Source: an uncultured Rikenellaceae bacterium (lineage in GTDB: Bacteria > Bacteroidota > Bacteroidia > Bacteroidales > Rikenellaceae). Taken from it: a stretch of DNA of 22,449 nucleotides. Position 1 is the stretch's first letter; every line of letters starts with the position of its first letter. Position numbers and translations under genes: made by a program. A model generated the notes under the pieces. That model had not been told where the DNA came from and searched no databases. It saw only the letters and a list, made by a program, of their open reading frames with translations. The DNA lies in NCBI GenBank assembly GCA_910588925.1, contig CAJURV010000033.1, positions 1-22,449 of the forward strand. Direction: 5' to 3'. Positions 1-22,449 of the stretch are shown piece by piece.

Positions 1-57
1 TTCGATAAGCCGAGCGCAGAAGCAAATGAAATTTGATTATGCCGAGGCGAGAAAATG
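1..57 (+). repeat. Small hairpin element (~60 nt, REP/MITE-like), + orientation, truncated by window edge
   Basis: ttcgataagccgagcgcagaagcaaatgaaatttgattatgccgaggcgagaaaatg. Homologous copies occur at 15349-15414 (rc), 18361-18420 (rc), 18442-18497 (+) and 22329-22395 (+). Confidence 0.8.
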
Positions 58-88
58 TCTGCAATTAAGCGAACGAATATTCTTCAGA

Positions 89-3303: not shown

Positions 3304-5406
3304 TTAATCGAAGAGCAACTCGAACTCGTCGATGTAGAGTGTGCTCCCCTCGCCGCCTATGAAGTCGGCGCCGTACACGCTCGATGTGGCTACGAACACT
3401 ATGTGCGTAGGCTTGATAGTGTTACCCTCGCCGTCTTTCTCAAGGGTGTATTTTATGTCGAAACCACCCTCGGTATATTCAGTGACGTTATCGGCCGTCT
3501 TGAACTCGCCGTAACCCACCACTACAGGGTTCGACGGACGTTCGGAGGTGCCGTCGGGCCACTTCTCGAGACTGATATACACGTGCATTCGGTCAGTCTC
3601 GCCTATGTGCGCATCACCCCTGTTAATGGTAGTAGGCGTATATTTGTAGAAGAAACGCAACCCCGAAGGACGACCGGTATAGGGACGACCGAAATGCGGA
3701 CTATCCTTAGGACTGGATAGGTTGGTCTCAAAATATCCGGTGAAGAGGTTTCCGGCCGCAAAAGTCTTTACGACTACGGCATTGACCCACAGCGACTGCA
3801 TACGTACTCCCCGGCCCTTATATGCTTCCGGCTCGTCTACAGGCGCGGTATTGGAATTGGTCACGATGGTCACTCCGGAGTTACCGGTATCCCAATACTG
3901 ATCCACTCCGTCACCCCACGGATTCCATGTCTTACCGCTCTGGCTCCACGAATCCATATTGAGGTTGGGAATAAGCACGATGTTCTCGGTAGTGAAGCTG
4001 ACCTCGTTGCCCTCTATATCGGCGGAGATCGGACGCACCCTGTATCTGGTATCCGGCTCCAACCCGCGTACGGTAGCGGTAAAGTTCTTACCGTCTATGG
4101 TTATGTCGCTCTCGGGCAAAACGGTCCACGTCTCGTCTGCATCCTTGCGATACTCGAACGTGAGCCCCTCGGGCTGCATACCGGACGTCCACTCGGCCTC
4201 CACGAGAGCGTATTTGGCGAACGCCTCCACCCTCCTGAGGGCAGTGTTGGCATTGGACGAACGTACATTTAGACACACCGTCTGCTCTACTAACTGGCAA
4301 TGGCTGTCGAGCATCATAAGAGTGATATTGTGTTCGCCCGTCTTCATCCCGGCAGTCATACCGCTGAAGTCGATGAAGCCGGAAGAGGTGCCGATACCTC
4401 CCCATCTGAGACCTATGGCATTGAGCGCCGCTACCGTGGCCTCGCCGGCGGTGGTGAGGTTTATGAACTCGGGAAGCCCCTGCGCCACCAGCGACTTATC
4501 GTAGTGAGTGACGTAGAGCAGATCGATACCGGCCTCGGCCTCCACATCTACGCGTGCCGGTACGCTCTCGCCGAACTCAATGAGCGTGAAGCCGTCCATG
4601 TCGAGGTCCGAAGACGAGAACCGCCCCATAGGGCAACGCCCCGGAGTTATCACTATATCGTGGTCGATATCGTCGGTGTTCGGGTCGACGGATATGGACG
4701 AGTGTATGCCGCCGTCGGTTATCTCGCCGCTCTCCGACACCTTGAATGTGAGTATGTAATGCTCTCTGGCCTTTACTCCGGTGATGGTCTTGCGCATCTT
4801 GTAAACAGTCCCCTGCTTGTTGACGAGATTCAATTCCCATGTCAACGAGCCCGGATCCTTGAAATAGCCGGAACGTATCTCCTCCTCCGAGAAAGTAAGC
4901 GAAGCCTTATTGCGGTTATTCTTAACGACAGCCTTATAATAGCTGAACGCCTCGGTGACGCTATGGTCGAAACGCACGCTCACCTTTACGTTGGCTATGC
5001 GGCAAACGAGATTAACCGTCGTAACCTTACCGGTCCTTATCTCGAACGTCTCGCGCCCTACCAGATACGGACTCTCCCAATCGTCGACATCCTTGCCGTT
5101 GGTGGCCACCGCCGTGTAGGTGCCGTTATCCAGCTCTATGACGTCGGGCATATCGTTGCTGTCTTCGAACGACATCACCGCATCGCCCTTCTCATCGAGG
5201 ATCTCCACACGATAAGTGTCCGGATCGGCGGCGTAAGAGACACGTTCCACTACGGATACATCCGAAGTGATACCCTTTATATACAACCGGCCTTTGTTAC
5301 CCACCGTATGCACCGTCGGATCATTGGTACACGAGGCGCACCACACGCACACCAGCGCGGTGATCAGAAGCGCCACACGGCGTCTTATATTGTCGAACGA
5401 TCTCAT
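3304..5406 (-). CDS. Large surface lipoprotein: DUF4493-like N-domain + FN3-like + PCMD-like C-domain (paralog 2)
   Basis: 700 aa. Signal peptide with lipobox (LVCVWCASC). Its N-terminal domain is homologous to the N-termini of the 416-aa and 723-aa ORFs (…NGTYTAVATNGKD…SPYLVGRETFEIRTGKVTTVNLVCRIANVKVSV). An FN3-like motif (TRYRVRPISADIEGNEVSFTT) is followed by a PCMD-like C-terminus (FGRPYTGRP…KPTHIVFVATSSVYG…GSTLYIDEFELLFD). Confidence 0.8.
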   Translation of the reverse strand: MRSFDNIRRRVALLITALVCVWCASCTNDPTVHTVGNKGRLYIKGITSDVSVVERVSYAADPDTYRVEILDEKGDAVMSFEDSNDMPDVIELDNGTYTAVATNGKDVDDWESPYLVGRETFEIRTGKVTTVNLVCRIANVKVSVRFDHSVTEAFSYYKAVVKNNRNKASLTFSEEEIRSGYFKDPGSLTWELNLVNKQGTVYKMRKTITGVKAREHYILTFKVSESGEITDGGIHSSISVDPNTDDIDHDIVITPGRCPMGRFSSSDLDMDGFTLIEFGESVPARVDVEAEAGIDLLYVTHYDKSLVAQGLPEFINLTTAGEATVAALNAIGLRWGGIGTSSGFIDFSGMTAGMKTGEHNITLMMLDSHCQLVEQTVCLNVRSSNANTALRRVEAFAKYALVEAEWTSGMQPEGLTFEYRKDADETWTVLPESDITIDGKNFTATVRGLEPDTRYRVRPISADIEGNEVSFTTENIVLIPNLNMDSWSQSGKTWNPWGDGVDQYWDTGNSGVTIVTNSNTAPVDEPEAYKGRGVRMQSLWVNAVVVKTFAAGNLFTGYFETNLSSPKDSPHFGRPYTGRPSGLRFFYKYTPTTINRGDAHIGETDRMHVYISLEKWPDGTSERPSNPVVVGYGEFKTADNVTEYTEGGFDIKYTLEKDGEGNTIKPTHIVFVATSSVYGADFIGGEGSTLYIDEFELLFD

Positions 5407-9407: not shown

Positions 9408-10847
9408 ATGGCAATAACAGACCAGAAATTATCGGGTCAGACGAGAGTCGAACACGACCTGCTCGGCGACAAGAACATTCCCGTCGAATACTATTTCGGC
9501 GTACAGACCATGCGTGCCATGGAGAACTTCCACATCAGCCGCGTAAGGCTCAACATGTACCCCGTTTTCATCAAAGCGCTGGCTATGGTGAAACAGGCTG
9601 CAGCGGAAGCTAACTGCGAGCTCGGCATACTCAAGCCCGAAATACGCGACGCCATCGTGGCCGCTTGTAAAGAGGTGCGCGAAGGCAAGTTCGACGACCA
9701 TTTCGTAGTAGACATGGTACAAGGCGGCGCCGGCACATCTACCAACATGAATGCCAACGAGGTGATCGCCAACCGTGCCCTCGAGCTGATGGGCCACAAG
9801 AAAGGCGAATACAAATACTGCCATCCCAACAACCACGTCAACCTGTCGCAGTCTACGAATGACGCCTATCCCACATCGGTGCGCGTGGCTCTTCTCAACC
9901 GCACCCGCGACCTTGTCGACGCACTCAAGGTATTGGTAGAGGCATTCCGTGCCAAAGGCGAAGAGTTCGCCGATGTCATCAAGATGGGCCGCACTCAGAT
10001 GCAGGACGCAGTGCCCATGACCCTCGGACAGGAGTTCGGGGCATACGCTGCCACCCTGTCTGAAGAGATAGAACGCCTCGAGAACAACGTACGTCTGTTC
10101 CTCGAAGTAAACATGGGTGCCACTGCCATCGGTACCGGTATCAACTCCGATCCCGACTACACCCCCACCTGTATCAAATATCTATGCGAGATCACCGGCA
10201 TGCCTATGGTAGCCGCCGGCAACATGATCGAAGCGACCAACGATACCGGCGCGTTCATCATGTACTCATCGGCTGTCAAACGTCTGGCCGTCAAGCTATC
10301 TAAGATAAGCAACGACCTTCGCTTGCTCTCGTCAGGTCCTCGCACCGGTTTCAACGAGATCAACCTGCCTCCCATGCAACCCGGTTCTACCATCATGCCC
10401 GGCAAGGTCAACCCCGTCATACCCGAGGTAGTGAGCCAGATAGCATTCAAGGTGATAGGCAACGACCTCACGGTAACGATGGCGGTAGAGGCCGCACAGC
10501 TCGAGCTTAACGCTATGGAGCCCATCATTGTGCAGGCACTCTTCGAAAACATCGAAATGCTTATCAACGGCATGAACACACTCCGCGAAAGATGTATCGT
10601 AGGCATCACCGCCAACAAAGAGCGTTGCCGCCAAATGGTTTACAACAGCATAGGTTTGGTTACGGCTCTCAACCCCTACCTCGGTTACGAAGTATCTACC
10701 GAGCTGGCGAAAGAGGCCCTCGAAAACAATAAAGGCGTGTACGACCTGGTTCTCGAAAAAGGGCTCATGTCGAAAGAAGAACTCGACAACGTACTCCGCC
10801 CCGAGAACATGGTAAAACCCCGCAAGTTCATCGGCAAGAACGTTTAA
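9408..10847 (+). CDS. aspA: Aspartate ammonia-lyase (aspartase)
   Basis: 479 aa. This is a fumarase/aspartase-family protein with the GSTIMPGKVNP signature. It aligns along its whole length with E. coli AspA as I recall it (DLRLLSSGPRTGFNEINLP, FKVIGNDLTVTMA, GITANKERC, YNSIGLVTALNP). It is clearly closer to aspartase than to FumC. Confidence 0.9.
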   Translation: MAITDQKLSGQTRVEHDLLGDKNIPVEYYFGVQTMRAMENFHISRVRLNMYPVFIKALAMVKQAAAEANCELGILKPEIRDAIVAACKEVREGKFDDHFVVDMVQGGAGTSTNMNANEVIANRALELMGHKKGEYKYCHPNNHVNLSQSTNDAYPTSVRVALLNRTRDLVDALKVLVEAFRAKGEEFADVIKMGRTQMQDAVPMTLGQEFGAYAATLSEEIERLENNVRLFLEVNMGATAIGTGINSDPDYTPTCIKYLCEITGMPMVAAGNMIEATNDTGAFIMYSSAVKRLAVKLSKISNDLRLLSSGPRTGFNEINLPPMQPGSTIMPGKVNPVIPEVVSQIAFKVIGNDLTVTMAVEAAQLELNAMEPIIVQALFENIEMLINGMNTLRERCIVGITANKERCRQMVYNSIGLVTALNPYLGYEVSTELAKEALENNKGVYDLVLEKGLMSKEELDNVLRPENMVKPRKFIGKNV

Positions 10848-10863
10848 CATCTTTATACATATA

Positions 10864-10915
10864 AATATCGGAGGCTGCATCCTTAAAGAAGATGCAGCCT
10901 CCGATATTTATATGT
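10864..10915. terminator. Intrinsic terminator after aspA
   Basis: Perfect ~17-bp stem aatATCGGAGGCTGCATC / GATGCAGCCTCCGATatt with a 9-nt loop, followed by ttatatgtat, starting 17 nt after the aspA stop. Approximate coordinates. Confidence 0.75.
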
Positions 10916-11137
10916 ATATGGTTGTACCTCCCGGCAGCCACTTGGTGAAGGTGATTTGTCGAGTGGCAAAGTACCAGAAACAATGGACTTTCAGAAGTAC
11001 ACGATATGCAGTAAAGCAAAAAAAATAAAGATGAACACTTTAGTACATCATGCTACTAATTATATACATAATGCGACTCATGAAAATCTAATTATGTTAT
11101 AATTTCGAGACAAAAGGTTCGGCATTTACGCTACCGA

Positions 11138-11188: not shown

Positions 11189-11270
11189 CTGAAACGCTCT
11201 CGCTCCGTATCAGGAGCGCAACACAAGACTTGCGCTTCTTTAGAAGTGCAAAGTATAGTACACAATTCCG

Positions 11271-11320
11271 CTGGCGAGACGATAAGATACTACAAAATAC
11301 ACTGAAAGTATGCGCATTAA
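11271..11320 (+). repeat. Repeat unit I (copy b)
   Basis: ctggcgagacgataagatactacaaaatacactgaaagtatgcgcattaa is about 85% identical to the copies at 89-138 and 22091-22140. Confidence 0.85.
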
Positions 11321-11549
11321 CAAATACATCCATGCGGCACGGGGTGCCGCTCCGCAATAACCTCCACGAATTAACAGAACAGAGGTTGGGAAACTCCCCG
11401 GCGAAACAAAAAAGACATCGGAGCTTAACGACATGCGCATTAACCGCAAGTCGCAGGCATGCTAGCCCGTGTACACAACTAAAGACCGCAGGGCGCCGAA
11501 GTTTTTTAGACCTCAAAAATCGTCGATCGCGGTCGTGTGCCTCGGAGCG
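11321..11549 (+). repeat. Repeat unit II (hairpin-rich ~230-nt module), unoccupied version
   Basis: Colinear with 22141-22449 at roughly 80% identity. Shared segments include catgcGGCACgggGTGCCgctccgc (7-bp hairpin), acatgcgcattaaccgcaagtcgcaggcatgc, gaccgcagggcgccgaa and tttttagacctcaaaaatcgtcgatcgcgg. This copy lacks the 67-nt insert present in the 22141-22449 copy. Confidence 0.8.
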
Positions 11550-12035: not shown

Positions 12036-12320
12036 TCCCGAGGCACGAGGGATGAGCGGGCCGGAGCCTCCCCCAACGGAGGCCCGCTTATACGGTTGGT
12101 TATTTATAGTATTTATCGCCTTTTTATATAAAATCACTCTCTCGAATGTCACACTCGAGCGGTCCCCCGCATGCTCCGGCCCTTGTGACGCCGGGCAAGG
12201 TATCGCTAAAATCCATGTAAACCACATAATAATAGGAGTCGTGTCAATTCCATCCGGCGAAAAGTTCAGCTAATGCACATATCGTCAAGATAGAGAAAAT
12301 TCACCGCCCCGCAAACCGTC
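12036..12320 (+). repeat. Conserved ~300-nt stem-rich element, copy B
   Basis: See copy A. Same block order and orientation. A different AT-rich insertion lies between blocks 2 and 3. The element ends about 35 nt before the pgi terminator hairpin. Confidence 0.8.
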
Positions 12321-13813: not shown

Positions 13814-14821
13814 TCACCTCAACTGCCCGGTGAGCGTCTTTATCTCCGCCGCCGCCGACCTCTTCATATACAGTATGCGATAGACGGTGTCGGCTATGGG
13901 CATGACCACCTTGCGCGACCTGTTGATCTGCTCTATGCAATACGATGCGTAATACCCCTCGGCCACCATGTTCATCTCTATCTGCGCGCTACGCACCGAA
14001 TAGCCTTTGCCTATCATCATACCGAAACTGCGGTTACGGCTGAACTGCGAATAGGAGGTCACCAACAGGTCGCCCAAATAGGCGGAGGTATTGGTATCGC
14101 GCTCCGACGGATAGGTGCTCTCGAGAAAATGGTTCATCTCTTTGGCCGCGTTGGCTATGAGCACGCTCTGGAAATTGTCGCCGTAACCCAGCCCGTGACA
14201 AATACCTACGGCTATGGCATATATGTTTTTAAGCACGGCGGCATACTCGGTGCCGTATATATCAGTGGCCGTGTTGGTATTTATGTATGGAGTGGAGAAC
14301 TTGCCGGCCAGCATGCGTGCGTTGTCCTCGCTCTTGCACACGAGATTGAGATACGACAGACGCTCGAGAGCCACCTCCTCGGCATGACAAGGCCCGGTGA
14401 TGATGCCTATACGGTCGAACGGCAGCCCGTAATGTTCATTGACATACTCGGCAACGGTGACATAACTGTCCGGAATTATACCCTTGATGGCCGAAAGCAC
14501 GAACTTATCCTCCAGCGACACGGTCAGGGGCTCGAGGGTCTTACCGAGGAATGCCGAGGGAGTGGCCAACACCACTATATCGGCCCACGAGACAATCTCG
14601 TTAACATCGCCCGATATATGCAACTTGCCGGTATCGAAATGTACACCGCTAAGATATTTGGGATTGTTGCCGTGCTCGAGTATATGACCGGCGACCTCGC
14701 CGTTACGTATATGCCAGCCCACGACAGGCTCGTTCTCCAACAACATCTTGACGAGCGCGGTAGCCCAACTTCCGTAACCTATCACCGCCACACGTGCGGA
14801 TTCGTCTATTCTGAAACTCAT
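13814..14821 (-). CDS. gpsA: NAD(P)H-dependent glycerol-3-phosphate dehydrogenase
   Basis: The N-terminal Rossmann motif VAVIGYGSWATAL and overall similarity to the GpsA family. The supplied track begins at a TTG at 14845 (MCAKKIIVM-). The first ATG, at 14821 (MSFRIDESARVAVIGYGSW), gives the canonical N-terminus. The gene lies 65 nt upstream of pgi on the same strand, so it is probably co-transcribed. Confidence 0.85.
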   Translation of the reverse strand: MSFRIDESARVAVIGYGSWATALVKMLLENEPVVGWHIRNGEVAGHILEHGNNPKYLSGVHFDTGKLHISGDVNEIVSWADIVVLATPSAFLGKTLEPLTVSLEDKFVLSAIKGIIPDSYVTVAEYVNEHYGLPFDRIGIITGPCHAEEVALERLSYLNLVCKSEDNARMLAGKFSTPYINTNTATDIYGTEYAAVLKNIYAIAVGICHGLGYGDNFQSVLIANAAKEMNHFLESTYPSERDTNTSAYLGDLLVTSYSQFSRNRSFGMMIGKGYSVRSAQIEMNMVAEGYYASYCIEQINRSRKVVMPIADTVYRILYMKRSAAAEIKTLTGQLR

Positions 14822-15142
14822 TACAATAATCTTTTTTGCACACAATGCTCTCGAACACAGGGATTATTAGCCCATGCTATCGGAAACACCGGATACATAC
14901 AACACGGACCGCGGGAAAGATCTTGCGAAAATATCGCAGGCCCCTCTACGCTAAACTATTCTCCCTACAAAACAGAAAGCCCCAAGGTCCGAATTGGTTT
15001 TAAAGATAGGTATTTTATTCCAAGCATGCAAATCGCCAGCTCCGGACGTTGCCTTTCCGACACTTTCGTATGAATAACCGCCTTATTTTCACAGACATCT
15101 CAACCACCGTAGACAAAGCCAGAGCACGATCGCTTTTGCGCT

Positions 15143-15307
15143 CGGCTTATTCGTATCTTTGGCTGTGCCTTAGATACTCCGCCTCGACAAACCCAAACAA
15201 GTTTGCTTTTGTATTCGGCTTATTCGTATCTTTGACTTCGTCTTAGATACTGCGCCTCAACAAACCCAAACAAGTTTGTTTTTGTATTCGGCTTATTCGT
15301 ATCTTTG
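15143..15307 (+). repeat. 2.3 tandem copies of a 73-bp repeat, each carrying TTTG…TATCTTTG promoter-like motifs
   Basis: The unit cggcttattcgTATCTTTG-(n)-cttagatact-cgcctc-acaaacccaaacaaGTTTGyttttgtatt occurs at 15143-15215, 15216-15288 and 15289-15307 (partial). Each unit carries a TAnnTTTG -7 motif about 21 nt downstream of a TTTG, which is the Bacteroidetes sigma-A architecture. It lies ~130 nt upstream of the hydrolase ATG. The first 13 nt (tgcgctcggctta) are shared with the small hairpin element family. Confidence 0.7.
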
Positions 15308-15348
15308 CACCTGCATGCAACGGAAAAACGTTCGCTTCGATGCAGATG

Positions 15349-15414
15349 TTTTCTCGCCCCGGCAATCGAAACTTCGTTTCATTGCGCTCGGCTCATCGAA
15401 AACGTCAGCTTTAT
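15349..15414 (-). repeat. Small hairpin element copy (reverse orientation) in the hydrolase 5' region
   Basis: gttttctcgccccggcaatcgaaacttcgtttcattgcgctcggctcatcgaaaacg is the reverse complement of the 22329-22395 copy at about 90% identity. The internal hairpin GAAAC-UUCG-GUUUC has a UUCG tetraloop. Confidence 0.75.
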
Positions 15415-15437
15415 TTCGCAGTCGCATCAAAACAGAT

Positions 15438-16757
15438 ATGAACCGTATTTTAGCCATTCTTTTACCGCTCGTGGCGATATGTTCCGCCCGGGCCGCCGAC
15501 CCCGCCGATCCGGCCGCTCTGCGCAAAGCGACCGAACGTAAAATAGAGAACTACCTTATGCAAGGCGTCGCAGGACGGTATTTCCCCGGAGGGCAGTTGG
15601 TGATAGGGAACAAAAGCGGCGTCATATACTCTACGAGCGTAGGTTCGTTCGACTACAGCGGAGGGCGCAAAGTAACCGACACCGACCTGTACGACCTTGC
15701 CTCGGTAACCAAAGTGATGTCCACGACCTTGGCCGTCATGACCCTTTACGGAGAGGGGCGCATAAAGCTCTCCGACAGGTTGGGGAGCCTGGTTCCGCGA
15801 TATAGCGGCAGCGCCGTAGCCGACATAACCGTACGCGACATGCTACGCCACACCTCCGGCATGAAACCGGTGATATACGTATGCGAACTGACATGCAGGC
15901 CTATAGCCGACTCCGTAAAGCTATTGAGCGCCAAACGCGACTCTCTGCACACCGTGGCCGTAGACGCCTCCACATACGTGGTAGACACATTCGTTTACGA
16001 CAACCGATACGTAAGCGCCACCCCCGACAGTACCACCCTGTTCGACCTCTCGCCGAGGTTATGGGTGCGTCGGTCCCTGCTCTCGGCCATCGACTCTGCC
16101 GTAGTAGCCTCCTATCAACCTGAACGACGCGGACGTTACCGATACAGCTGCCTCAACTTCTATCTGCTGCAACAAGCCATAGAGGAGCTTAGCGGAGAGA
16201 CGCTCGACAAATTCGCAGGTTCGATATATCGACGCATGGGGCTCACCCGCATAGGCTACAAACCGTTGGAGTGGAGCGACATAGGCCAGATAGCCCCCAC
16301 CGAATACGACCTGCTCATGCGACACGACACCGTACGCGGCTATGTACACGACGAGATGAGCGCCTCGCTCGGCGGGGTATGCGGCAATGCGGGACTATTC
16401 GCCGACGGACTCGACGTAGCCTCGCTATGTCAGATGTTCCTGTCCGGCGGCAGATGGAACGGCATGCAGATAATAAAACCGGAGGTGTTGCGTCTGTTCA
16501 CCTCGGAACAGATGTCTCCCTCGAGCCGTGTCACCCGCGGACTCGGTTTCGACAAGCTGAAAACGGAGCCTTACAGCACAGCCTCTTACGGCCACACGGG
16601 CTTCACTGGCACCTATTTCTGGTGCGACCCGTCCATAGATCTTTATGCGGTATTGCTAACCAACGGCGTCTACCCGTCGCGAATAGACAAAACCATAGGC
16701 GGCAGTTATCGCAAACGGATATGGGAACTGGCCAAAGAGTTGAGGAAAATACAATAA
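15438..16757 (+). CDS. Serine hydrolase (class C beta-lactamase/esterase family), exported
   Basis: The start is reassigned to the ATG at 15438 (MNRILAILLPLVAICSARA signal peptide). The 5' extension in the track runs through the tandem repeats and is spurious. The protein carries the S-x-x-K active-site motif (ASVTK) and C-terminal HTGFTGT, both typical of the beta-lactamase/transpeptidase fold. Confidence 0.8.
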   Translation: MNRILAILLPLVAICSARAADPADPAALRKATERKIENYLMQGVAGRYFPGGQLVIGNKSGVIYSTSVGSFDYSGGRKVTDTDLYDLASVTKVMSTTLAVMTLYGEGRIKLSDRLGSLVPRYSGSAVADITVRDMLRHTSGMKPVIYVCELTCRPIADSVKLLSAKRDSLHTVAVDASTYVVDTFVYDNRYVSATPDSTTLFDLSPRLWVRRSLLSAIDSAVVASYQPERRGRYRYSCLNFYLLQQAIEELSGETLDKFAGSIYRRMGLTRIGYKPLEWSDIGQIAPTEYDLLMRHDTVRGYVHDEMSASLGGVCGNAGLFADGLDVASLCQMFLSGGRWNGMQIIKPEVLRLFTSEQMSPSSRVTRGLGFDKLKTEPYSTASYGHTGFTGTYFWCDPSIDLYAVLLTNGVYPSRIDKTIGGSYRKRIWELAKELRKIQ

Positions 16758-18018: not shown

Positions 18019-18050
18019 TTTGCAACGAAACGAAAAATAGACTATCTTTG
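18019..18050 (+). promoter_or_regulatory. Bacteroidetes sigma-A-type promoter (TTTG-20nt-TATCTTTG) upstream of tRNA-Leu
   Basis: TTTG at ~18019-18022 and TAtcTTTG at ~18043-18050 with a 20-nt spacer, about 70 nt upstream of the tRNA 5' end. Confidence 0.5.
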
Positions 18051-18118
18051 CATAAGATAAATTGCCGTGGCAATAGGAAACGCCGTCGCTATCGGCTCGA
18101 TTATCTGACTTTAATACT

Positions 18119-18200
18119 GCGGATGTGGTGTAATTGGTAGCCACGCCAGACTTAGGATCTGGTGGCGCAAGCCGTGGGGGTTCGAGTCCCTTCATCCGCA
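18119..18200 (+). tRNA. tRNA-Leu (anticodon TAG)
   Basis: Perfect 7-bp acceptor stem GCGGATG/CATCCGC with discriminator A. Anticodon stem-loop CCAGA-CTTAGGA-TCTGG. A long (13-nt) variable arm marks it as type II. The T-loop is TTCGAGT. CCA is not encoded. Confidence 0.85.
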
Positions 18201-18210
18201 CAAAACGAAC

Positions 18211-18248
18211 CGAGGTGTCATTTGCTTTATGACACCTCGGTTTTTTAT
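18211..18248 (+). terminator. Intrinsic terminator after tRNA-Leu
   Basis: CGAGGTGTCAT-ttgcttt-ATGACACCTCG followed by GTTTTTTAT. Confidence 0.8.
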
Positions 18249-18360
18249 ATTCGATAGATCGCACAATATCACACGCGTTTTTCGCTTCGGGCAATCGAAA
18301 CCCATTTTAGTTGTACAAACCTCTCGTCACATATAATTTTAAACGTTGAATTTCATTCTA

Positions 18361-18420
18361 CATTTTCTCGCCTCGGCATAACCAAATTTCATTTGCTTCT
18401 GCTCTCGGCTTACCGAAAAC
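18361..18420 (-). repeat. Small hairpin element copy (reverse orientation)
   Basis: cattttctcgcctcggcataaccaaatttcatttgcttctgctctcggcttaccgaaaac is the reverse complement of positions 1-57 at about 93% identity. Confidence 0.8.
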
Positions 18421-18441
18421 GTTCGTTTTTATGCAGAAGTT

Positions 18442-18497
18442 TTCGATAGACCGGGCGCAATGAAATTAAGTGTCGATTGTATTCGGTTTATCGAAAA
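18442..18497 (+). repeat. Small hairpin element copy (+ orientation), diverged; forms an inverted pair with 18361-18420
   Basis: ttcgatagaccgggcgcaatgaaattaagtgtcgattgtattcggtttatcgaaaa. The two copies face each other across a ~20-nt spacer (gttcgtttttatgcagaagtt). Confidence 0.6.
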
Positions 18498-18601
18498 TAT
18501 TCATGTTATTGATGTCATACTCATTATGTGTACACGCATGCAATCATTCGTAAACATGGATGTAATATCTATGTTTACGAATGATTCTTATGCGGTGAGA
18601 G

Positions 18602-21982: not shown

Positions 21983-22090
21983 GTGATTTTATTCTAGTGC
22001 CGTAATAAGTTGGGATTTTCTTGTCGGTATTTCATATAGACTATTCAGGGGGGACGTTGTTTTGTTGTTCGACAAAGACTATGTTTTCGG

Positions 22091-22140
22091 TTGGCGAGAC
22101 GGAAAGATACTATAAAACACACTAAAGGTATGCGCATTAG
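22091..22140 (+). repeat. Repeat unit I (copy c)
   Basis: ttggcgagacggaaagatactataaaacacactaaaggtatgcgcattag. Confidence 0.85.
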
Positions 22141-22449
22141 CAAAAGCCATACATGCGGCACGTGGTGCCGCTCCGCGATAACCGCTACGAATTAACCCGA
22201 CAGAGGTCGGGGAAGCCGCTTGCGAGCAAATACCATCACTTCACACCCAAAGACATGCGCATTAACCGCAAGTCGCAGGCATGCTTGCCCTAGCACACAA
22301 CCGCAGCCCGCAGGGCGCCGAACTTTTTCGGTAAGCCGAGCGCAATGAAACGAAGTTTCGATTGCCGAGGCGAGAAAAAGTGCGCGAAGCGAAGCTTTTT
22401 AGACCTCAAAAATCGTCGATCGCGGGCGTGCGCCTCCGGAGCTAATGTG
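22141..22449 (+). repeat. Repeat unit II, occupied version (carries nested small element), truncated by window end
   Basis: Colinear with 11321-11549. This copy contains an extra 67 nt at 22329-22395. Confidence 0.8.
22329..22395 (+). mobile_element. Nested insertion of the small hairpin element inside repeat unit II, flanked by a TTTTT duplication
   Basis: Unoccupied site at ~11495: gcgccgaaGTTTTTTagacctc. Occupied site: gcgccgaaCTTTTT-[cggtaagccgagcgcaatgaaacgaagtttcgattgccgaggcgagaaaaagtgcgcgaagcgaagc]-TTTTTagacctc. The empty-site/filled-site pair and the repeated TTTTT are consistent with a target-site duplication. Confidence 0.55.

Follow-up and report, generated by a model that had tools for sequence, protein, structure and literature searches.

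The 73-bp tandem repeat upstream of a serine hydrolase gene in the stretch of DNA analysed here (the window, 22,449 nt at its full length) is a three-box array of a dispersed palindromic unit of approximately 74 bp. It is one member of a promoter-carrying family, found upstream of more than 120 unrelated genes, and not a device of the hydrolase gene. We consider it very probable that the unit is a portable promoter module and that the last unit of an array drives the adjacent gene. Each unit would bring along a promoter for the primary sigma factor of Bacteroidota, in which an internal hairpin holds the -33 element on its 3' arm and the unit closes with the -7 element TATCTTTG at its 3' end. 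Units would stack head to tail, each junction falling directly after a -7 box, and the last one of the stack would become the promoter of the adjacent gene, here of a PBP4B-like hydrolase via a 130-nt leader. The upstream units would then be surplus copies, prone to losing their -7 box, and units would be gained, lost and exchanged by recombination between conserved parts, both within an array and between loci.

A TRF run over the whole window gave a 73-bp tandem repeat at 15142-15307 (2.3 copies, 92% matches, no indels, score 283), which bears out the 2.3 head-to-tail copies of 73 bp that an earlier note had placed at 15143-15307. The array lies in a 615-bp divergent spacer between gpsA and the hydrolase gene. 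It consists of one 5'-truncated unit, which forms the left edge, and two full units, all of them ending in TATCTTTG:

13814-14821, minus strand: gpsA, glycerol-3-phosphate dehydrogenase, the divergent neighbour and anchor of the strain comparison
15112-15161, plus strand: 5'-truncated first unit, family model positions 25-74 (nhmmer, E 6.7e-10)
15154-15161, plus strand: -7 box 1, TATCTTTG, next base G; the sole TTTG is at 15 nt (15135-15138)
15162-15234, plus strand: full unit A, 73 nt (TRF, nhmmer, pattern scan), the unit that is absent from the 2-box allele
15202-15205 and 15227-15234, plus strand: -33 TTTG of unit A and -7 box 2, TATCTTTG, next base A
15235-15307, plus strand: full unit B, 73 nt, closest to the gene (TRF, nhmmer, pattern scan)
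15275-15278 and 15300-15307, plus strand: -33 TTTG of unit B and -7 box 3, TATCTTTG, next base C
15308-15437, plus strand: predicted 5' leader, 130 nt from the last -7 box to the ATG, holding a copy of a small hairpin element (15329-15409)
15438-16757, plus strand: hydrolase gene, 439 aa, beta-lactamase-fold serine hydrolase (domain and family searches, public gene calls)

All three -7 boxes are intact. A scan for TTTG-N19-21-TAnnTTTG matched the array only twice, at 15202-15234 and 15275-15307 (N21 in both), and the whole window four times, against 0.19 expected. For box 1 the scan of the array found no TTTG 19-21 nt upstream and a spacing of N15 only; the array therefore holds two complete promoter consensus matches and one additional -7 box. 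The claim of a complete promoter in each unit applies to boxes 2 and 3 and fails for box 1, which has no correctly spaced -33 element. Units A and B differ at 7 of 73 positions. The earlier note had confined these differences to the segment gctgtgcc/acttcgtc, the top of a hairpin; four are located there and three elsewhere. A scan for E. coli-type promoters and terminators detected no sigma-70 type promoter and no terminator within the array, therefore its hairpins are not canonical terminators. A tRNA-like reading of the 73-76 nt units was rejected, as ARAGORN gives only a tRNA-Leu in the window. Upstream of this tRNA-Leu (18119-18201) stands a canonical TTTG-N20-TATCTTTG with a following C (18019-18051), and a hairpin (18197-18253) comes after it. 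Its promoter is an ordinary single one and a useful comparison with the array.

The 20-mer core TCGGCTTATTCGTATCTTTG, the 3' end of the unit, was scanned in one genome per species (596 Gb) and occurs in more than 117 genome stretches, where approximately one would be expected by chance. Among the matches listed, 93 of 117 belong, by record title, to Alistipes, Rikenellaceae or Tidjanibacter and 7 of 117 to Muribaculaceae, with a few other Bacteroidales. The family is abundant in Rikenellaceae (Alistipes) and present in other Bacteroidales, too. Cultured carriers are A. putredinis DSM 17216, A. timonensis JC136, A. muris DSM 112343 and Heminiphilus faecis AM35. Conservation around the matches extends beyond the 20-mer and covers the whole unit of about 74 nt. 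With an HMM from 49 seed units, nhmmer found 267 units in 135 arrays within the window and 823 kb of retrieved DNA; this sample was gathered by the exact 20-mer including the -7 box and is no genome-wide census. The arrays comprise one unit (46 arrays), two (52), three (31) or four (6), always in direct head-to-tail orientation. In the literature searched, no description of this repeat family in Alistipes or Rikenellaceae was found, an absence that is no proof of novelty, and the bare motif TATCTTTG gave unrelated primer matches only. Rfam at its gathering thresholds matched the tRNA alone in the whole window, and at E <= 10 no family in the region 14950-15450. Apparently, the family has been undescribed so far.

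From the units a common anatomy was derived. The unit reads as two hairpins and ends in the Bacteroidota -7 box TATCTTTG. Its first part, RCTTCGYC-nAAGATAC, is the 3' arm of hairpin 1, the 5' arm of which is the preceding -7 box. A linker (TYCGCCTCGG) follows, then hairpin 2 (e.g., CAAAA-TGCAAAT-AA-ATTTGC-TTTTG), whose 3' arm holds the -33 TTTG, and finally CnCTCGGCTTATTCG-TATCTTTG. In the other phase the consensus unit forms one long fold-back with 11-nt inverted ends, GCCGAAGATAC...GTATCTTTGGC, and it is therefore an imperfect palindrome. These ends pair with each other, that is, terminal inverted repeats as in MITEs are present, and in a tandem array of such palindromes each of the two hairpins marks one of the two centres of symmetry. 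Neither the two covarying hairpins nor the palindrome formed by the whole unit had been recognised in the earlier note. This is not the organisation of a CRISPR array: the entire 73-nt period is conserved, and its variable part consists of a few palindromic subtypes that are common to different loci. In the window the following hairpins were located:

15153-15177, plus strand: hairpin 1 copy 1, GTATCTTTGGC-TGT-GCCTTAGATAC, with box 1 as its 5' arm (sequence, family covariation)
15226-15250, plus strand: hairpin 1 copy 2, GTATCTTTGAC-TTC-GTCTTAGATAC, in which an inner G-C of copy 1 is A-T
15187-15212, plus strand: hairpin 2 of unit A, ACAAA-CC-CAAAC-AA-GTTTG-CT-TTTGT, with the -33 TTTG in its 3' arm (sequence, folding, covariation)
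15260-15285, plus strand: hairpin 2 of unit B (sequence, folding, covariation)

Between the two copies of hairpin 1, a G-to-A exchange on one arm is therefore matched by a C-to-T exchange on the other one. Across the family, pair 19:25 of this hairpin is GC 70 times and AU 49 times. In a MAFFT alignment of 150 distinct units, 89% of the cells are standard pairs and 17 of 23 pairs have changed on both sides. The covariation score of 0.275, a tally of sequences and not of independent events, was reached by none of 500 column shuffles (0.131), and a slid partner gave 0.05-0.09. The outer stem of hairpin 2 is paired in 97% and all seven of its pairs covary; the pairs of helix 1 are paired in 82%. 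The units of the window itself show this structure in a weak form (z -0.7 to -1.6).

One might read from this a structured RNA, with the units transcribed as cis-regulatory leaders or as small RNAs. Both hairpins covary strongly, the fold of the array beats its shuffles (z = -4.5), and in hairpin 2 the sense strand has 56 G-U against 15 A-C, an excess that hints at folding of the sense strand, although these counts, too, are not independent events. However, the antisense strand folds at least equally well (z = -5.7), and palindromic DNA elements give the same pairing pattern. The distance to the ATG suits a promoter and not a leader, no Rfam family matched even at E <= 10, and single units would stay untranscribed because they are located upstream of the predicted start. 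We therefore regard an RNA function as very unlikely. An even more improbable alternative is that the palindromes bind protein, with hairpin 1 as operator for a dimeric regulator. A dyad GTATCTT-N9/11-AAGATAC does overlap each internal -7 box, but at the terminal, presumably working boxes its second half-site is absent. Moreover, the palindrome arms covary rather than stay conserved, the sequence of hairpin 2 is highly variable among units, and the downstream genes have no common function.

The position of the arrays relative to genes fits a promoter. On the same strand, an ORF with ATG (at least 80 aa, at most 400 nt from the array end) follows 122 of 126 arrays. The distance from TATCTTTG to this ATG has a median of 26 nt (interquartile range 19-42), with a small cluster at 4-9 nt. 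On the divergent side such an ORF is found for 81 of 117 arrays, at a median of 157 nt. A sample of ten downstream genes shows no functional relation among them; they code for RsfS, YajC, MatE, Pta, dihydroorotate dehydrogenase (DHODH), Sua5, YchF, RuvB, a DUF3127 protein and an LMW phosphatase. The -7 consensus of Bacteroides is TANNTTTGY (PMC12632263). Across the family the base after the terminal box is a pyrimidine in 102 of 121 cases, whereas after an internal box it is a purine in 80 of 80; a -33 TTTG at proper spacing is present in 78 of 121 terminal units.

The raw comparison of terminal with internal boxes was dropped, since the search 20-mer includes the -7 box and biases such counts. 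An unbiased comparison is possible among units without the exact 20-mer. Here, 26 of 31 terminal units but 42 of 92 internal ones have an undamaged box (Fisher p = 3e-4); contig ends account for three of the five terminal failures. Selection therefore preserves the promoter nearest to the gene, and the copies upstream of it decay. The promoter role of the last unit is well supported by motif, position and conservation, and the terminal box would be the one that fires. In the window a trailing pyrimidine is found at box 3 only (box 1 is followed by G, box 2 by A); because its next base is C, box 3 fits TANNTTTGY in full, and unit B is most likely the working promoter of the hydrolase gene. Its box is located 130 nt before the ATG, far beyond the 26 nt that is the median of the family, owing to a sister element, the small hairpin element, that intervenes.

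The number of units varies between strains. Among 11 contigs encoding an identical GpsA, nine have three boxes and the 615-bp spacer, in two alleles that are 21 substitutions apart, some of which reshuffle characters between units. The remaining two (GCA_948579295.1 and GCA_949483275.1) have two boxes and 542 bp. This is an exact loss of unit A with flanks identical to those of the window allele; both are short-read metagenome-assembled genomes, for which assembly collapse is possible. A metagenome scan with the left junction added one contig with the second three-box allele (L134), too few for a population estimate. The expansion and contraction that had been claimed for the array thus has a counterpart among the strains. 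A second polymorphic locus was found in A. putredinis (type strain and five metagenome contigs), with one, two or three units behind a resident TATCTTTG, the shorter alleles being chimeras of the longer one. In five of the six contigs the internal boxes are dead (GTAATCTTTG) and a single terminal box is intact; in the sixth, L140, the array ends in TATATTTG, followed by a different downstream sequence. This end of a 3-unit array is seen in the last 120 nt of the reverse strand of L140 (IMG/VR 3300029845_000244), which differs downstream of it from L056 and L136-L139; another element may have inserted beside the box. The locus may border a prophage, since these contigs are all classed as viral.

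This variation would fit a copy-number-tunable promoter array, in which all units fire and their gain or loss by slippage or recombination leads to heritable variation in hydrolase expression. In the window array two TTTG-N21-TATCTTTG matches are complete and the third -7 box is intact as well, its spacer is 542 or 615 bp depending on the strain, and the A. putredinis locus varies from one to three units. On the other hand, box 1 lacks a -33 element and the array type is not bound to the hydrolase gene. Throughout the family, a purine invariably follows the internal boxes where the consensus has a pyrimidine, more than half of the non-ascertained ones are broken, and in A. putredinis five of six contigs keep dead internal boxes beside one intact terminal box. 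As internal boxes precede a purine and about half of them are damaged, dosage tuning is therefore not the general function of the family, and we think it unlikely as an explanation. The tuning which the earlier note had proposed finds no support across the family but might operate at the window locus, where the upstream boxes may fire as well because all three are intact.

At orthologous loci of different species, the unit number and the subtype of hairpin 2 differ at the same junction, and species-specific subtypes of the unit exist. The nearest relative of a unit fell 32.5 times into a different array of its own genome, compared with 4.0 expected from the unit numbers in each pool (8x), and in the same array 17 times, compared with 0.7 expected. 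Mean identity is 0.748 within arrays, 0.757 between arrays of one genome and 0.709 between genomes. Thus, units are both duplicated locally and exchanged between loci. Local duplication as the sole origin of the arrays was rejected for the family, adjacent units being no more alike than units from other loci. Simple local duplication does fit the two full units in the window, which have 90% identity and belong to one subtype. Identical 75-nt terminal units are found before different genes in A. putredinis, at L029(-) and L056.

In 85 of 135 arrays the left end of the first unit falls at model positions 1-5. Of the 83 arrays of this kind that have sufficient sequence on the upstream side, 56 directly follow a box that matches TATCTTTG at 6 or more of 8 positions (background 1%), and about 8 start cleanly without a preceding box. 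These left edges are compatible with insertion at -7 boxes and also with decayed upstream units. Units both follow and end in TATCTTTG, which may reflect a specific target duplicated over 8 bp or no more than the repeat itself.

An active non-autonomous mobile element, MITE- or REP-like, would explain part of these observations: an enzyme recognising single-strand hairpins would insert units after a -7 box, and every insertion would supply a replacement promoter. The whole unit is palindromic with 11-nt inverted ends, its 3' boundary is sharp, and the 5' boundary falls as just described. The lack of greater similarity between neighbours, the species-specific subtypes, the identical units before different A. 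putredinis genes and the G-U excess of hairpin 2, which suggests that one strand folds, point in the same direction. However, a target-site duplication cannot be discerned, viral contigs yielded no empty site for the A. putredinis locus, no transposase candidate was identified, and many upstream boxes that look resident may be units of the family in decay. The alleles can be accounted for without any enzyme, by unequal crossover and gene conversion involving the conserved segments. We consider an active element possible but doubtful. The inverted ends, sharp boundaries and within-genome spread favour a dedicated enzyme, but the missing target duplication, empty site and transposase candidate call for caution; we infer that recombination, and not such an enzyme, moves the units.

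A more far-reaching variant of this idea, which we consider rather unlikely, is that the unit is a self-propagating promoter cassette homing to the -7 box of primary-sigma promoters. In single-stranded DNA the 5' end of the unit (..AAGATAC) would pair with the box (GTATCTT..), possibly with an HUH-type enzyme involved. Insertion would be harmless to the gene because a fresh promoter is carried at the 3' end of the cassette, and the promoters of Alistipes genomes would thus be replaced time and again.

Several known systems resemble the family. REP elements are 20-40 nt long, have a GTAG head and form clusters of alternating orientation, mostly at the 3' ends of genes, and REP/BIME are associated with a RAYT gene; pneumococcal BOX elements contain a boxB module of variable tandem copy number. 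With REP/BIME and BOX the family shares extragenic palindromic units that occur alone or clustered. It differs from REP in its direct orientation, its position at gene 5' ends and the promoter which it carries; nor does it belong to REP/BIME by its unit of 74 nt, which has no GTAG head and is always arranged in direct head-to-tail arrays. Putative mobile promoters (PMPs) are stretches of 50-100 nt, with an identity of 80% or more, that precede non-homologous genes of the same genome (PMC3488235, Matus-Garcia et al. 2012). The identical 75-nt units before different A. putredinis genes and the diversity of downstream genes agree with this description. But PMPs are an operational class without defined anatomy (PMC3488235), whereas the family described here has a defined palindromic unit, tandem stacks and junctions at -7 boxes and, unlike PMPs, spans many species and several families.

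The closest working parallel seems to be promoter-bearing MITEs, that is, the Correia elements and, within Bacteroidales, BrickBuilt. Correia repeat-enclosed elements of Neisseria are likewise small, non-coding, promoter-bearing and located directly upstream of genes, with inverted ends (PMC10969869). They carry working promoters, and their hairpin-forming ends can appear in transcripts (PMC10969869). They are about 100-200 bp long, with a -35/-10 promoter of the sigma-70 type, and occur as single insertions (PMC10969869), in contrast to the 74-bp unit with -33/-7 elements and head-to-tail stacks; there is no sequence relation between both, and any target duplication or mobility of the family would be putative. 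BrickBuilt of Porphyromonas gingivalis, a MITE/minisatellite, shares the intergenic location in Bacteroidales, tandem repeats, inverted ends and a promoter (PMC4596501). It has a 23-nt unit within one MITE with leader and tail, is species-specific with 19 copies and shows bidirectional promoter activity (PMC4596501), whereas here the whole 74-nt palindromic unit is repeated, in one direction and across genera. The family thus differs from PMPs, Correia elements and BrickBuilt in its unit, its Bacteroidota-type promoter, its stacking at -7-box junctions and its spread across genera.

If the preferred reading of a portable promoter module is true, a sizeable share of genes in Alistipes and other Rikenellaceae would be under one interchangeable promoter, swapped and stacked over short evolutionary times. 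This would make promoter propagation testable in a major gut genus, offer a ready portable promoter for Alistipes genetics and provide many natural copy-number alleles for measuring the effect of stacked promoters. It would also account for breaks of short-read assemblies upstream of genes and be a caution to annotators with respect to ORFs called through arrays. The interest rests mainly on the repeat family and less on the hydrolase, and the variation of the window array should not be taken as a resistance-related switch. Several short-read contigs with the hydrolase gene (L002-L006) end within the array or the small element, which would be expected if both repeats occur in many copies per genome and interrupt assemblies.

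The hydrolase matches PF00144 (E = 1e-34, domain from residue 40) and carries the motif SVTK; its N-terminal signal contains Cys15. Its best NCBIfam match is PBP4B, below the cutoff of that family, and no named beta-lactamase family matched above cutoff. The ATG at 15438 (439 aa) is the commonest public call (11 of 15 full-length calls); it is used in six of six places of a hydrolase look-up and in five gpsA-anchored loci, with a 480-aa call in four. The ORFs 15276-16757 (493 aa) and 15049-15246 (65 aa), which run through the array, had been considered artefacts. The public ATG and the start of the Pfam domain agree with this judgement, as does the occurrence of the same repeat upstream of unrelated genes elsewhere. 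In one strain (L007:1064-1867) the hydrolase is called at just 267 aa behind an identical upstream array, which may be a frameshift or a pseudogene.

The small hairpin element occurs five times in the window:

1-75, minus strand: small hairpin element, sister family of the unit
15329-15409, plus strand: second copy, within the predicted leader
18360-18425, plus strand: third copy
18433-18500, minus strand: fourth copy
22319-22400, minus strand: fifth copy

It has the linker and central hairpin of the 74-nt unit (model positions 18-63), with GAAAACGTTCG taking the position of the -7 box. The element is common in the window and rare in the other loci (L067 and L081 only). The sequence TGCGCTCGGCT, common to array and small element, has five sites against 0.57 expected. 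That the array was seeded by this element, as had been supposed, was rejected in this form: the small element aligns to the centre of the unit model and forms a sister family that is seldom met outside this species, and the left edge of the array is just a truncated unit. The end of the small element may resemble the repeat core of the Bacteroides Mpi invertase, ARACGTWCGT.

Another set of repeats is dispersed between genes, with lengths of 75-360 nt and identities of 75-92%; it partly adjoins copies of the small hairpin element and had no Rfam match in the window:

89-163, 11271-11344 and 22092-22165: first group
11266-11548 and 22086-22442: second group
289-454 and 12159-12316: third group

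Furthermore, there are two near-perfect palindromes. One, at 10847-10925, has 35-nt arms (91% complementary) and directly follows a Lyase_1/fumarase-type gene; the other, at 18542-18586, has 20-nt arms (95% complementary) and is located in the region after the tRNA. Finally, a 56-nt direct repeat (629-684 and 3369-3424, 91% identical) lies inside two neighbouring PCMD-domain genes and reflects paralogy or gene conversion in this DUF4493/PCMD gene cluster.
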